This document shows, in pieces, positions 1,408 through 59,086 of a DNA stretch of 64,000 nucleotides. The DNA is from Candidatus Magasanikiibacteriota bacterium. Lineage in GTDB: Bacteria; Patescibacteriota; Patescibacteriia; Magasanikbacterales; UBA922. The notes below the pieces were generated by a model that worked only from the letters and a program-made list of their open reading frames with translations, did not search any database and was not told the DNA's origin. The DNA is taken from positions 24,095-88,094 of the forward strand of contig DOYU01000022.1 of NCBI GenBank assembly GCA_003518365.1. The letters are read 5' to 3'. The position numbers were made by a program, and so were the translations under genes. Position 1 is the first letter of the stretch. Every line of letters begins with the position of its first letter.

Positions 1408-1578
1408 AATTGAAAAAAATTTCAGCTAACGTATGTGAGTATGCGAAGTCCAGCCTTTTGTTTCCAGTACAAACTTTTATTTCACAATAAACCTATTTTA
1501 CTGCTTCAAACCTTCAATTTCAAGAGTGGAAGTTGTGTGGAGTGAAGAAAAAATTATTATTTTTTGTACTTTTTTAGC

Positions 1579-1607
1579 TTGACAGATATGCGTGAGCGTG
1601 ATATAAA
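1579..1607 (+). promoter_or_regulatory. Sigma70-like promoter: TTGACA, 17-nt spacer, TATAAA
   Basis: It lies upstream of the ORF at 1636, and a GGAGG ribosome-binding site precedes the ATG. Confidence 0.45.
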
Positions 1608-1635
1608 GAGTAGTCGCCAACGGAGGTAACTATAC

Positions 1636-1974
1636 ATGATCACGACGATGACGGTAAAAGCGGTGAATGAGCTTCGGGAAGCTCTGCGGTACGCCGAGGG
1701 CAAGTGTGACGTAGTACTTGCCAGTGGTTTACCCTATGATTCGTCCATCGACAATCTAGCTGATTTCCTCGCCCACCTTTTTGAACAAGGGGGTAACGAT
1801 CTTCCTCTTCGTGAGTGGTTCCGTGCGCTCGAAGAACAGACCTTCAGGAAGCTGATTGAGAATGGCGCAAAGGGTGCCGACCTAGATCGTTACCTTGGAA
1901 TGAAGAAGTCGGCAAGGCAACAGTATCTTTACCGGCGATTTGGAATTGCGGTTACCAAATTGGGGAATAGGTAG
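1636..1974 (+). CDS. Hypothetical 112-aa protein in a locally GC-rich segment
   Basis: A GGAGG RBS precedes it and GC content is clearly higher than in flanking DNA. A perfect GC hairpin terminator follows. Confidence 0.45.
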   Translation: MITTMTVKAVNELREALRYAEGKCDVVLASGLPYDSSIDNLADFLAHLFEQGGNDLPLREWFRALEEQTFRKLIENGAKGADLDRYLGMKKSARQQYLYRRFGIAVTKLGNR

Positions 1975-1999
1975 ATCGTCCAGTCGCCCCGCTCATCAC

Positions 2000-2037
2000 G
2001 CCCTGCCCGAGATATCTCGGGCAGGGCATTTCTTTTT
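2000..2037 (+). terminator. Rho-independent terminator: 12-bp perfect GC stem (gccctgcccgag / ctcgggcagggc) followed by a T-tract
   Basis: Seen directly in the sequence at 2000-2027, with attTCTTTTT after it. Confidence 0.8.
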
Positions 2038-2090
2038 CACGCAACCTTATACTCAGTGTTATCGTTGATGTACCTAGAAGTTTTTATTCC

Positions 2091-22531: not shown

Positions 22532-23311
22532 ATGTACGGCATTGTCCTCTCACGACGTGATTTTCGAGAGGCAGATCAAGTCATCACTATCTTGACTGCA
22601 GAGGAGGGCAAACGAGAATACATCGCCCGTGGGGTAAAAAAAATTGTCAGCAAAAACACGTCGCACCTTGAGCCTGCGACGCTTATTAGTTTTGGTATTG
22701 CAGAAGGAAAGAAAGAATTTTCCTATCTGACGAATGTCCAACCGGTTGAATCATTTTTTCATCTTCGACAATCTCTTCCAACACTTCATATCATCGGGTA
22801 TAGTCTTGATGCGCTTTTTACCATGCTCAAAGAAGGGGAAGCAGATAGCGACATCTACCAACTGTATATTTCGTATCTTAGATTTCTCAATACTCAAGAA
22901 CAGGTGAGACTTCTTCTTCTCGACGCATTTCTTATCAAACTTTTTTCTCATCTTGGCTATCATCCATCACTCGATGCGTGTGTGGTATGTGAAAAAACCT
23001 ATAAAGAAATAGGACTAGAATTTCTTTCTGCGACAGAGCAAAAACCTGGGTTTTATTTTGCCGGCGGCGGTATTATTTGTGCGTCTTGCAAAGCAGAAAA
23101 ACAACGCATTGGAGAAGTGGCATATCCGTGTGGAATAAAGGAAATCAACACGTTGCGTTTTCTATTGGCAAGTTCGTGGCAAGATGTGGTTTCGTTCCCA
23201 CTTGATGAAGAAGAATATCGTCTTGTACACAAACTGATCTATGAGTTTATGTTATATCACAGTGAGAGAAAGTGGGATGATTGGGGGAAGATTTCTTTGA
23301 TCATGACATAA
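22532..23311 (+). CDS. recO: DNA repair protein RecO
   Basis: An N-terminal OB fold plus a CxxC...CxxC zinc finger. Confidence 0.75.
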   Translation: MYGIVLSRRDFREADQVITILTAEEGKREYIARGVKKIVSKNTSHLEPATLISFGIAEGKKEFSYLTNVQPVESFFHLRQSLPTLHIIGYSLDALFTMLKEGEADSDIYQLYISYLRFLNTQEQVRLLLLDAFLIKLFSHLGYHPSLDACVVCEKTYKEIGLEFLSATEQKPGFYFAGGGIICASCKAEKQRIGEVAYPCGIKEINTLRFLLASSWQDVVSFPLDEEEYRLVHKLIYEFMLYHSERKWDDWGKISLIMT

Positions 23312-23371
23312 CCTGAGCAAAGAAATCTGCGGAAGGCTGGGGGCCTTCCGCGACTGTGGATGATGGTTTCG

Positions 23372-23542
23372 CTATACCTGTCCGGTGGCCTGTAGGAGCC
23401 ATCCCAACGCGGCAAGGACGAGGATGAAGATCGTCAGCTTGATGAGGACTTCGCCGCTAGTCTTTACTGTTTTGATGGGGTGGAAGAGAAGGTTCCAGAA
23501 AAACACCAGTACAAGAAATCCCAAAATACCAACAATCCACAT
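23372..23542 (-). CDS. Small membrane protein of 56 aa with two TM helices. The likely start is MWIV, preceded by a GGAGG RBS.
   Basis: An ORF in a GC-richer islet, preceded by the duplicated promoter module described below. Confidence 0.4.
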   Translation of the reverse strand: MWIVGILGFLVLVFFWNLLFHPIKTVKTSGEVLIKLTIFILVLAALGWLLQATGQV

Positions 23543-23703
23543 AGTAACCTCCAGTTTCGTCATGCATATATACAACATGTATTCTATTTATGCATGACAA
23601 AACTGAAGAGCGGTGGAGTATATACGATATTCTTTTTTCTGTCAACCTTGCAATTTTATTCCATTTTTAGCTCGATAGTCGAGGAATTATAGGAAATTTT
23701 TGA

Positions 23704-23772
23704 AATAAAAAAACAAGGAGATCTTGTTTGTTGAAGTGAACTCGGGCAGCGTGCGTGACGCCGCCCGAGTTC
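23704..23772 (-). terminator. Terminator region for the gene at 23788..24024: a GC hairpin (gaactcgggc...gcccgagttc) and then a 6-bp hairpin followed by a T-run on the minus strand
   Basis: Read directly from the sequence. Confidence 0.5.
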
Positions 23773-23787
23773 GTCGTTTAGCGGAAG

Positions 23788-24024
23788 TCACCCCAAAGGG
23801 GATTTCTTCCCATCGAAAACCTTGAGCGCCCGCCACGCGATGATCAAGGCAAGGAACAGCGTCAGAACAAACGAAGCACATGCTGCGCCGATGATATCGC
23901 GGGCTTCCTCAGTGGGGGCTTTCCTCACCATGACAAAGCCGGTGATGAGTGCGGCTATCAGAGCTGCCTTGAGCTGGCTCATGATTCCTCGCAACCATCG
24001 TACGGTCTGGTGATGTGGGTTCAT
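23788..24024 (-). CDS. Small membrane protein of 78 aa. The likely start is MNPHHQ with a GGAGGA RBS, and the track's longer start would overlap the -10 element.
   Basis: Two TM helices and the same upstream promoter module as 23372..23542. Confidence 0.4.
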   Translation of the reverse strand: MNPHHQTVRWLRGIMSQLKAALIAALITGFVMVRKAPTEEARDIIGAACASFVLTLFLALIIAWRALKVFDGKKSPLG

Positions 24025-24140
24025 CAGGTCCTCCGTCGGGGTTTGAATGACATAGTAACACATATTATTTTCCTGTCAACCTTGCAATTTTTCATTGTTT
24101 TTTGTAGTATACAAGGTACTTTAGATGTTATTACTTTTAT

Positions 24141-25436
24141 ATGAATGCACGTATATCACAGTTTAAAGACCACGTCGGCCAAGAAGTCACCATCCAAGGA
24201 TGGATTCAAGGAGGACGATCTTCTGGCAAGATCGCCTTTTTTGAGATTCGCGATGGCTCTGGATTTACGCAGGCAGTGGTAGCTCAAGAGAGTGTGTCTG
24301 ACGATGTCTGGCAACAGGCTGTCGGTGCCTCACAAGAGTCTTCCGTTCGACTAACAGGGACTGTCTCTGCACATCCAAAAAAAGAAGGTGTATTTGAACT
24401 TCAAGTATCGAGCATGAAAGTCGTGGGTGCTTCAGAAGAATATCCTATCGGGAACAAAGAGCATGGTCCGGATTTTCTCATGAATCATCGTCACCTCTGG
24501 CTCCGTAGCAAAAAGCAATGGGCGATTCTTCGCATCAGAGATACGGTAGAGCGAGCGATTATGAATTTTATGCATGAACAAACATTCGTGCGTACTGATT
24601 CTCCTATTTTTACGCCAAACGCGTGCGAAGGAACCACAGATTTATTTCCTGTCCCATATTTTGATCTTGGGGAAGCATATCTGTCACAGTCTGGACAACT
24701 CTATATCGAAGCGGCTATTGCGAGCGTCGGACGATGTTATGATTTTGGTCCAGTGTTTCGTGCAGAAAAATCTGTCACAAAACGGCATCTCACAGAATTT
24801 TGGATGATGGATGCAGAAGCGGCATTTGTCGAGCATGATGAAAACATGAATATCCAAGAAGCGCTTGTGAAATATATTGTCAAAGCGTGTCTCACAGAAT
24901 GTAAAGAAGAATTTGTTATTCTGGAGCGAGATACGACGCCATTAGAAAAACTTCTTGAACTTTCATTCGAACGACTCGAATACGATGATGCTATTGTTCG
25001 TCTCAATGAACTCGGATCAGATATTAAGCATGGAGAAGATCTTGGTAATGATGATGAAGGCTTGCTCACGCAGAATAGTCCTGTGCCAGTCTTCATCCAC
25101 AAATGGCCAAAGCATATCAAGCCATTTTATATGAAAATTGATCCAGAAAATCCAGCACGCGTCTTCAACAACGATCTTATTGGTATTGAAGGATCTGGAG
25201 AAATTATTGGTGGATCACAGCGTGAAGATAATTATGATTTGCTTTTGGAACGTATCAAAGCTGATGGGCTGAGTCCAGAAGAATATGAATGGTATCTTGA
25301 TCTTCGAAAATACGGCAGTGTGCCACATTCAGGATTTGGTATTGGGCTCGAGCGTATGGTGAGATGGATGTCTGGTACAGAGCATATTCGTGAATGTATT
25401 CCATTTCCACGATTGGTAAATAGAATAAAACCGTAA
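24141..25436 (+). CDS. asnS: Asparaginyl-tRNA synthetase
   Basis: Class IIb synthetase motifs (FRAEKSVTKRHLTEFWMMDAE and GGSQREDNYDLL) and a length near 430 aa. Confidence 0.85.
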   Translation: MNARISQFKDHVGQEVTIQGWIQGGRSSGKIAFFEIRDGSGFTQAVVAQESVSDDVWQQAVGASQESSVRLTGTVSAHPKKEGVFELQVSSMKVVGASEEYPIGNKEHGPDFLMNHRHLWLRSKKQWAILRIRDTVERAIMNFMHEQTFVRTDSPIFTPNACEGTTDLFPVPYFDLGEAYLSQSGQLYIEAAIASVGRCYDFGPVFRAEKSVTKRHLTEFWMMDAEAAFVEHDENMNIQEALVKYIVKACLTECKEEFVILERDTTPLEKLLELSFERLEYDDAIVRLNELGSDIKHGEDLGNDDEGLLTQNSPVPVFIHKWPKHIKPFYMKIDPENPARVFNNDLIGIEGSGEIIGGSQREDNYDLLLERIKADGLSPEEYEWYLDLRKYGSVPHSGFGIGLERMVRWMSGTEHIRECIPFPRLVNRIKP

Positions 25437-26918: not shown

Positions 26919-27143
26919 GTTATTTCAGATAACGTCTCTGGACATGCAAAGTTGCACCGTTGTTAGTTTACCAGATTTTCGTTTTAGTACTAGCCTTCGT
27001 CGAAGCCTCAAACTTTCAATTTTTTTGTCGTGGTTTACTATTGACAATTTATCTAAAAACGGTAAGATTGGGTCGAGAGTCGGGGTTTACCTTATTTCGA
27101 GGGATTCCTTGTGACTTTCAAGCATATCGAGAAGGAGCCTGTC

Positions 27144-27350
27144 ATGGCACGGAGTGTTCACCTCACGAACGGTCAGGGTCAGCCCGTCCGCTTCAGCAAG
27201 GGGCAGGGTGAGTCGGTCTACATCGGAAACGGCGGCGATCCGGTGTACGCCTCGAGCTCGGGGAAAATCGTCTGGGCGACGAACCCCGACGCTCTCCCCG
27301 CCAACCTGCGTCCCGGCCAGGTCGGGACGCGCGACGAGTTCAAGCCGTAG
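27144..27350 (+). CDS. Small 68-aa ORF with high GC, a GAAGGAG RBS 7 nt upstream of the ATG, and a putative promoter at 27041..27068. Function unknown.
   Basis: Its GC content is much higher than the surrounding genome, and a GC-rich terminator follows at 27371..27413. Confidence 0.35.
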   Translation: MARSVHLTNGQGQPVRFSKGQGESVYIGNGGDPVYASSSGKIVWATNPDALPANLRPGQVGTRDEFKP

Positions 27351-27370
27351 CCTACGGTAAGAACCATCTC

Positions 27371-27413
27371 AGGCCGGCTTCGCAATTTCGCGGAGCCGGC
27401 CTTTCACTTTTTA
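27371..27413 (+). terminator. GC-rich rho-independent terminator (aggccggct...agccggcct followed by ttcactttttag)
   Basis: Read directly from the sequence. Confidence 0.6.
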
Positions 27414-27441
27414 GAGAGAAAAAATTTTAAAAATAATGAAC

Positions 27442-58602: not shown

Positions 58603-58692
58603 GTGTATTTTGGGCACATCGTTGTCGGCCTCATTCTATCCTTTGCCTAAGTGGGCGTTGGAAAGAAGAGGCAAACGCATCAAGGGAACACC

Positions 58693-58914
58693 ATGCATTG
58701 TGTCAAGAAGGTCGGTTCCGAGTATGTTCAAGCCGACTTCCACCTGGCCACCCGCGGGAATCACCGGCGCATCCTGGTGCCGGTCCGTCCTCTCAGGGAA
58801 GGAGATCCCCTCCCCAAGGGAGTGTCCTCGATGATGGATCTCGGTAGGCTCTGTGCCACTGAGCGAGAGCTGAAGGCCGCCCGCGTCGCTGCGGGAGTGC
58901 CGCACCGCGGCTAG
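58693..58914 (+). CDS. Possible small ORF or pseudogene fragment in a GC-rich islet. The frame has a strong GC3 skew, an AAGGGA RBS precedes the ATG at 58693, and the track ORF starts at GTG 58651.
   Basis: About 70% of third-codon positions are G/C in this frame and not in the antisense ORF. No family was recognised. Confidence 0.25.
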   Translation: MHCVKKVGSEYVQADFHLATRGNHRRILVPVRPLREGDPLPKGVSSMMDLGRLCATERELKAARVAAGVPHRG

Positions 58915-59086
58915 CACTTCATCGCCGTCCACGTGGCAAGGAGAGGGCTGCGTGTACTCATCCGCGGCCCTCTCCTCTGAGAATTGCATTTGTACCCAAC
59001 CACTCGCACCTCACTGTGATTTGAACTCAAAACGTTCAAGTCAGAGCAAGGTAGCTCATATCGAGTGGTTGTCTCTACAATTAAAA

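Follow-up and report, generated by a model that had tools for sequence, protein, structure and literature searches.

Bacterial intergenic regions in which two sigma-70 promoters diverge from a common upstream region, small membrane proteins built of two helices (Pmp3/YqaE, class II holins, and small accessory subunits), and messages whose 5′ structure hides the ribosome-binding site (RBS) are the described systems closest to the locus considered here: the gap between recO and asnS in a 64-kb stretch of DNA from Candidatus Magasanikbacteria (Candidate Phyla Radiation [CPR]/Patescibacteria; contig DOYU01000022.1), which we refer to in its whole length as the window. Among messages of the last kind, the type I toxin loci hok, tisB, zor, and aapA1 typically combine a small hydrophobic protein with a leader that buries the RBS and a variable genomic locus, and processing of the phage lambda N leader and of Escherichia coli adhE by RNase III unmasks an RBS. 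The recO-asnS gap contains two small membrane-protein genes on the minus strand, A and B, and each is preceded by a copy of the same short promoter repeat.

On balance, we think it fairly probable that the gap is a small variable islet made of two independent single-gene transcription units, each of which would have a near-consensus sigma-70 promoter, a GGAGG ribosome-binding site, a gene for a small two-helix membrane protein, and a hairpin terminator. In the copy of the repeat that lies beside asnS (copy 2), TTGACA would serve the small gene and TTGCAA would serve asnS, together with a TAGTAT 17 nt farther on; the copy in front of gene A (copy 1) would be a duplicate of this asnS-proximal core. 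Gene B would be expressed constitutively from a short, open leader, and gene A would be strongly transcribed, with its translation gated by a hairpin within the first ~70 nt; something such as RNase III, or a partner RNA or protein, would first have to open or cleave its stem. Taken one by one, these components—divergent promoters, a duplicated promoter core, and an RBS-sequestering leader—belong to known kinds.

The promoter repeat and asnS

The 19-mer CTGTCAACCTTGCAATTTT occurs only twice in the window, at 23639-23657 and 24073-24091, and there is no third site in the window even when up to three mismatches are allowed. The chance expectation is 0.05, none of 100 shuffled sequences has two or more copies, and identity between the copies extends to 24 nt with a single mismatch (23634-23657 and 24068-24091). 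An earlier note on this DNA had described a repeat of ~20 nt carrying a -35 element before each gene, and its coordinates, its uniqueness, and a promoter scan all agree with that description; the repeat is not a random recurrence of the kind that the note had allowed for. The promoters of genes A and B, both read on the minus strand, are the two best sigma-70-like sites found between 22.5 and 25 kb. The gene A promoter (23617..23645) matches the consensus at 11 of 12 positions, with TTGACA at 23645..23640, a 17-nt spacer, and TATACT at 23622..23617, the last of these being TATAAT in relatives. The gene B promoter (24052..24079) matches at 10 of 12 positions and is nearly identical in one related lineage (X, below); it has TTGACA at 24079..24074, a 16-nt spacer, and TACTAT at 24057..24052, with a TG before it. 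The -10 box proposed previously for gene B, TACTAT, is thus retained, whereas for gene A the proposed TATATA at 15 nt gives way to TATACT at 17 nt, which fits better. The conserved A/T block reported farther upstream is present, although it amounts to AAAA(T)T only.

There is substantial variation in the gap among related loci, at every one of which recO is syntenic. In lineage W (the window and L008-L015), asnS and gene B are read away from one module, gene B is followed by its terminator, and a second module leads into gene A, the terminator of which faces a convergent recO. Lineage X (L001-L004) has asnS, the module, gene B, and its terminator, followed by a DUF6311 gene and then recO, whereas in lineages Z and Z2 (L019 and L032) the module beside asnS leads directly into gene A, its terminator, and recO. 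In lineage Y (L005 and L018), an unrelated G+C-rich gene of 113 aa and its terminator precede the module, gene A, its terminator, and recO. The asnS-proximal module is able to precede either small gene (B in W and X, and A in Z), and the two promoter types part just downstream of GTTGACAGRAAAA. Genes A and B do not form a conserved pair, as in this gap X lacks A, Z lacks B, and Y has A together with the unrelated 113-aa gene, and the suggestion that they are paired small membrane proteins is not borne out by these arrangements.

A putative asnS promoter spans part of copy 2 on the plus strand (24082..24110), with TTGCAA at 24082-24087, a 17-nt spacer, TAGTAT at 24105-24110, and 30 nt before the ATG codon. 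The arrangement TTGCWA-17-TAGTAT, followed after 29 or 30 nt by the asnS ATG, is kept in four lineages (W, X, Z, and Z2) with differing spacer sequences, and the TATACTACAAAAA block forms an island of conservation within diverged flanking DNA. In copy 2 (24068..24091), the predicted -35 hexamers of gene B and asnS are on opposite strands and 2 bp apart. Because the conserved bases upstream of the gene B -35 coincide with the asnS -35 at a kept spacing of 17 nt, we read copy 2 as a back-to-back divergent promoter core. Copy 1 (23634..23657; on the minus strand, AAAATTGCAAGGTTGACAGAAAAA) repeats the 24 nt, but no usable -10 box stands at the proper distance on its plus strand. The shared 19-24 nt module is probably, then, a duplicated promoter core that includes the divergent asnS -35, and not a regulon signal or an operator.

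As in described divergent sigma-70 promoters with a common upstream region, the predicted -35/-10 pairs are on opposite strands with a canonical spacing of 16-17 nt that is conserved across lineages, within the 16-18 nt typical of such pairs, and the elements appear to be conserved while the spacer sequence drifts. This locus differs from the described ones in that the core is duplicated, and the second small gene uses a copy lacking the opposite-strand -10 box. Copy 1 may alternatively be a relic of the lineage Z arrangement, with A immediately next to asnS; were the two direct copies in W to recombine, B would be lost and exactly that arrangement would result. We infer this history of duplication by comparing the sequences of the lineages, and the transcription starts and promoter activities are likewise predictions from sequence and conservation.

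The conserved bases upstream of the -35 were previously taken as a shared activator site or an UP element. If A and B were co-regulated through a binding site common to both, for an activator or a repressor, or through an UP-like element, this could explain why 23 of 24 nt are identical between the copies, why conservation of the gene A promoter is unusually high over its whole length, spacer included, and why W and Y retain GCAAGG at the gene A copy although they have no known divergent gene there. However, these bases coincide with the putative asnS -35 hexamer, conserved 17 nt from TAGTAT; they contain G and C and are not A/T-rich, as an UP element would be. Strong promoters elsewhere in the window, among them those of the ribosomal-protein region and those ahead of tRNA genes, have no GCAAGG upstream of the -35. 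The search for further regulon members that the earlier note recommended gives none: allowing up to two mismatches, GCAAGGTTGACAG matches nothing in the window beyond the two known sites, and a 21-mer covering all variants matches, among ~186,000 species genomes, once per genome in three related Magasanikbacteria, with one further match due to chance. A metagenome scan with the module recovers only the W/X/Y/Z-type lineages plus chance matches. Neither the window nor the three related genomes thus provides a regulon, and with A and B not co-occurring in relatives, there is no conserved pair to co-regulate. We regard co-regulation through the module as unlikely.

Several observations nonetheless weigh against a duplicated divergent core. 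The consensus match of the putative asnS promoter is modest (8 of 12 positions) and falls below the cut-off of the promoter scan. No plus-strand gene needs the GCAAGG that W and Y both keep in front of gene A; the probability of its retention under neutral decay is ~0.07 by a rough estimate, and these bases may matter to the gene A promoter itself. Furthermore, both W copies have TTGCAA where all relatives have TAGCAA, a pattern that the duplicated core can accommodate only if gene conversion has acted on the copies or the duplication is recent, and which suggests that one of these is the case.

Two small membrane-protein genes

The open reading frames (ORFs) of gene A (23372..23542, minus strand; 56 aa) and gene B (23788..24024, minus strand; 78 aa) are present as originally described, each with a GGAGG-type RBS located 5 nt before the ATG. 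That of gene A (23548..23552, minus strand) is inside a leader hairpin considered in the next section; that of gene B (24030..24034, minus strand) is in a short unstructured leader (fold z -1.35) in which the site is not sequestered. Lineage X has AAGGAG at the corresponding place before gene B although the surrounding sequence differs, which argues that the site is functional. Each gene also has a predicted terminator of its own. The gene A intrinsic terminator (23329..23351, minus strand), found by terminator scan, has the form GCGGAAGG-CCCCC-AGCCTTCCGC followed by AGATTTCTTT and faces the convergent recO gene; lineages Y, Z, and Z2 keep this hairpin, which is followed by a T-rich tail. The gene B terminator region (23701..23772, minus strand) contains two hairpins, one G+C-rich (23738-23772) and one A/T-rich (23708-23732), followed by seven T residues (23701-23707); the region folds at -39.2 kcal/mol (z -5.0) and is conserved in lineage X. 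The G+C-rich hairpins said to bound the islet (23329..23351 and 23738..23772) are confirmed by inverted-repeat, terminator, and fold analyses, and the picture of two small membrane-protein genes with a common promoter module holds, with each gene separately promoted and terminated. A 15-bp inverted repeat (23289-23328; 93% complementary) lies across the recO stop codon, adjoins the gene A terminator, and is kept in relatives.

Codon alignments give dN/dS ratios of 0.23 for A (W versus Y) and 0.31 for B (W versus X), with an excess of third-position changes. Synonymous divergence is comparable to that of the flanking genes: dS is 0.71 for A and 0.90 for B, and 0.95-1.8 for asnS and recO between the same genomes. 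On these grounds A and B appear to be coding, to be under moderate purifying selection, and to be about as old as the lineage splits; both look like real genes, and the conservation in relatives that had been proposed as a check is found for both. It is very improbable that the G+C-rich stretches are non-coding RNA genes and not protein genes. As a rule of thumb, a G+C-rich island in an A/T-rich genome often turns out to be a structured RNA, but the changes here are concentrated at third codon positions with dN/dS of 0.2-0.3, and frame, ribosome-binding site, and protein length are all conserved across lineages. Moreover, no Rfam family matches the islet even at an E-value of ≤1, apart from generic microRNA-precursor hairpin models on the gene A leader. 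At gathering thresholds, no Rfam family is found in the whole window beyond two tRNAs.

The conserved start of gene A is the ATG after GGAGG, giving proteins of 56-57 aa across lineages. Database entries are mutually inconsistent in their starts (23372-23578 and 23788-24063; P0002, P0003, and P0006), and we rejected the over-long annotated forms of 63, 66, 68, 88, and 91 aa. In a longer gene A, the extension from an upstream in-frame ATG shifts frame between lineages. The start of an 88-aa form of gene B falls inside the -10 box, and that of a 91-aa form is upstream of the -10 box, ahead of the predicted transcription start.

Hydropathy identifies two hydrophobic segments in each protein, and AlphaFold2 models have helices at residues 2-20 and 29-52 of A and at 3-35 and 39-72 of B (pLDDT of 86 for B), in agreement with the two transmembrane helices reported for each. 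Protein A has the conserved motifs W-x-L-[LI]-F-H-P and, at its C-terminus, A-T-G-Q; protein B is conserved at its ends, with MNPHHQTVRWLR at the N-terminus and GKKSP at the C-terminus. The two proteins have no detectable relationship to each other, and NCBI has an identical entry for each, from GW2011 Magasanikbacteria bins.

Neither A nor B has a match at threshold in Pfam, NCBIfam, PHROGs, or PADLOC, so that the small-protein family search by hidden Markov models (HMMs) advised in the earlier note places neither of them. Gene A is represented by five protein clusters in total, all in or near Magasanikbacteria, with the four relative clusters at 43-73% identity, and gene B has a single relative cluster at 60% identity, on a Magasanikbacteria-like contig. 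A profile search with B among 1.84 billion representatives gave, besides B itself, only four matches, each made up of short stretches within a far longer protein; we do not count these as homologs. There is no sequence-profile match for B in the PDB, and Foldseek comparison of the B model to the PDB returned generic helical hairpins only, all with E > 0.3. No relatives of A or B were found in phage records by tblastn or in scans of IMG/VR. As far as these searches reach, A and B seem to be new, narrowly distributed protein families.

In size (56 and 78 aa) and helical-hairpin topology, A and B resemble Pmp3/YqaE, class II holins, and small accessory subunits, and B has, as class II holins do, a charged C-terminal tail; they differ from these small two-helix proteins in having no family assignment. 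A class II holin was rejected: B fits in size (65-95 aa in such holins) and in its topology of two membrane helices, but there is no PHROG holin match for A or B, there are no phage or viral relatives, no endolysin is present, and the neighbors are recO and asnS. We read A and B as independent accessory small membrane proteins.

The gene A leader and the type I toxin question

The 5′ leader of gene A is predicted to form a 60-nt hairpin (23549..23608, minus strand; arms at 23549-23575 and 23582-23608) that begins ~8 nt after the predicted transcription start and has a minimum free energy of -35.5 kcal/mol (z -6.6). Within it, CUCUUCAG in the 5′ arm pairs with CUGGAGG, such that GGAGG is paired. 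Because the hairpin pairs GGAGG, the RBS would be inaccessible and translational gating would follow, with gene A predicted to remain untranslated until the stem is melted or cleaved. An RNA thermometer is unlikely, as leader stabilities of -29 to -35 kcal/mol are far too high; known thermometers are far less stable than this.

The hairpin is retained in W, Y, and Z with 26 pairs kept, 17 of which are invariant, and the Z2 leader folds alike. Three of the pair changes are single-sided with pairing kept, one pair is broken, and the loop varies freely. A count of pairs over four sequences gave none changed on both sides, which is a further point against the explanation that we favor insofar as it includes gating of A; an apical pair in Z2 (AAU/GUU to AAG/CUU), picked out by eye from the sequences and the fold, appears to be the only candidate compensatory change. 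Over the 104-nt gene A regulatory stretch (module to RBS), lineages share 89-94% identity, compared to 61-78% for the gene A coding sequence and 83-85% for the recO-side flank. The leader is therefore conserved better than the protein that it precedes.

Leaders processed by RNase III offer one parallel, in that the gene A 5′ region has a near-perfect duplex of 17-26 bp, suitable in size and including the ribosome-binding site; it differs from them in that cleavage of the gene A leader is something we purely infer. Type I toxin messages (hok, tisB, zorO, and aapA1) offer another, sharing with gene A a small hydrophobic product, a strong promoter, a 5′ structure that buries the RBS, and a variable locus. 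This raises an alternative in which A, or less likely B, is a type I-like membrane toxin with a constitutive mRNA that is silenced by its leader and checked by an RNA antitoxin. At 56 aa, the hydrophobic A protein is of the usual size for such toxins (under about 60 aa); its promoter is strong and its RBS-sequestering leader is very stable and more conserved than the protein. The gap that it occupies, flanked by core genes, varies in which genes are present and has mosaic alleles.

Nevertheless, there is no convincing antisense promoter conserved in or near gene A across W, Y, Z, and Z2; the only recurring antisense match is weak (ATGACA-16-GATTAT; 8-9 of 12 positions) and overlaps the sense -10, although a consensus scan of this type may miss a weak or distant RNA gene. 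Short-word BLAST finds no significant complement to the leader elsewhere in the 64 kb, and no toxin family is matched in Pfam, NCBIfam, or PADLOC. The gene B leader is open, and B, at 78 aa, is above the usual size. The toxins of known type I systems are, to our knowledge, mostly of a single transmembrane helix, and A has two. In the literature searched, no paper ties type I toxin-antitoxin systems to Patescibacteria. A toxin of this type is therefore doubtful, and we favor an accessory small membrane protein as the product of gene A, with its translation gated by the leader.

Turnover and composition of the gap

The islet lies between recO (22532..23311, plus strand; Pfam RecO_N and RecO_C), which forms its left border and has ruvX upstream, and asnS (24141..25436, plus strand), which forms its right border and codes for a class II enzyme of the AsnRS type (Pfam tRNA-synt_2 and an anticodon-binding OB fold). 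Its G+C content reaches 0.52-0.56, compared to 0.42 for the whole window, and composition and the Pfam identities of the flanks agree with the description of a GC-richer islet between recO and asnS. The G+C content at third codon positions (GC3) is 0.65-0.66 in A and B and 0.67-0.75 in their relatives, compared to 0.33-0.39 in neighboring genes.

Alleles of gene A also differ by recombination. In L033, measured identities reveal a Y-type leader joined to a Z-type coding sequence and recO, and this mosaic indicates that alleles recombine across the conserved gene A regulatory stretch. L034 appears, as read from the sequences, to be a similar mosaic in which a Z-type protein comes after the 113-aa gene, promoter, and leader of the Y type; in these mosaic loci the junction is near the start codon.

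The 113-aa gene that replaces gene B in lineage Y (L018, 2790-3480, minus strand; L005, 60-600) is very G+C-rich and has no assigned family. It has a promoter of its own (TTGACA-17-TACATT), a five-codon ORF (MKYSS) ahead of it with a strong AAGGAGGTGA site, and several G+C-rich hairpins after it. The lineage Y contigs (L005, L018, L026, and L030) come from different samples and all end ~735-810 nt upstream of the module, which suggests strain-level heterogeneity or a repeat at the islet.

The genes of the islet could be recent foreign cassettes—from a phage, a mobile element, or a host—with the repeat as a by-product of insertion or exchange at a hot spot. Their GC3 (0.65-0.75 in A, B, and relatives) departs from that of the neighbors, both carry the canonical GGAGG that 43 of the 50 genes in the window lack, the content of the gap differs among close relatives, and L033 is a mosaic. 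Yet the dS values of A and B are close to those of the flanking core genes, which indicates that they have been resident for about as long as the lineages have been apart; there is no integrase or transposase in the flanking gene tables, there are no relatives in phage records or IMG/VR, and no homologs are found beyond Magasanikbacteria-like contigs. We consider a recent foreign origin improbable. An integron cassette array was likewise rejected, as each gene has its own promoter and the flanking ORF and gene tables contain no integrase, although no search with an attC model was made.

The composition of A and B is part of a broader pattern. GGAG or GAGG is present at -21 to -4 in seven of the 50 window genes, mostly the G+C-rich single genes, and the five genes of highest GC3 (0.53-0.84) are all among these seven. 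The genes without a Shine-Dalgarno (SD)-like motif have a GC3 of 0.35 ± 0.06 and include ribosomal-protein, secY, adk, and aminoacyl-tRNA synthetase genes. About half of Parcubacteria are reported to be without the anti-Shine-Dalgarno motif in 16S rRNA (PMC9297842).

Elsewhere in the window, a further G+C-rich single-gene islet (27041-27415, plus strand; G+C content 0.61-0.67) has a promoter (TTGACA-16-TAAGAT), AAGGAG, and a hairpin terminator; its ORF, with ATG at 27144 and a GC3 of 0.84, codes for a soluble, glycine-rich protein of 68 aa, and there is no Rfam match. A like pattern is seen at 1560-2040 (plus strand), with TTGACA-17-TATAAA, GGAGG, and a 112-aa ORF (1636-1974; GC3 0.54), ending in a strong 12-bp G+C-rich terminator at 2000-2027. 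A third segment (58636-58989, minus strand; G+C content 0.61) has a 117-aa ORF (GC3 0.69) without a ribosome-binding site or obvious promoter, and no Rfam match.

More speculatively, the recO-asnS gap may be one member of a genome-wide class of G+C-rich single genes with Shine-Dalgarno sites, near-consensus promoters, and strong terminators, scattered among A/T-rich core genes most of which have no such sites. Recombination at conserved promoter and terminator modules would swap these genes as cassettes, and A would be an RNA-gated membrane toxin. We would give this combined proposal little weight, although, if it is true, A might be the first described type I-like module of Patescibacteria, as the literature searched contains no other.

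The preferred reading, a variable islet with a duplicated divergent core and a gated gene A, would provide a worked example of an apparent regulon operator that is instead a duplicated bidirectional promoter core within a variable intergenic islet. The sharp split in the window between core genes without Shine-Dalgarno sites (GC3 ~0.35) and a few GGAGG-bearing, G+C-rich single genes bears on how translation starts in Parcubacteria. The small membrane protein A evolves fast, whereas its leader, which would sequester the RBS, is conserved; this leader is a candidate case of translational gating, or of toxin-like biology, in a lineage without cultured members.

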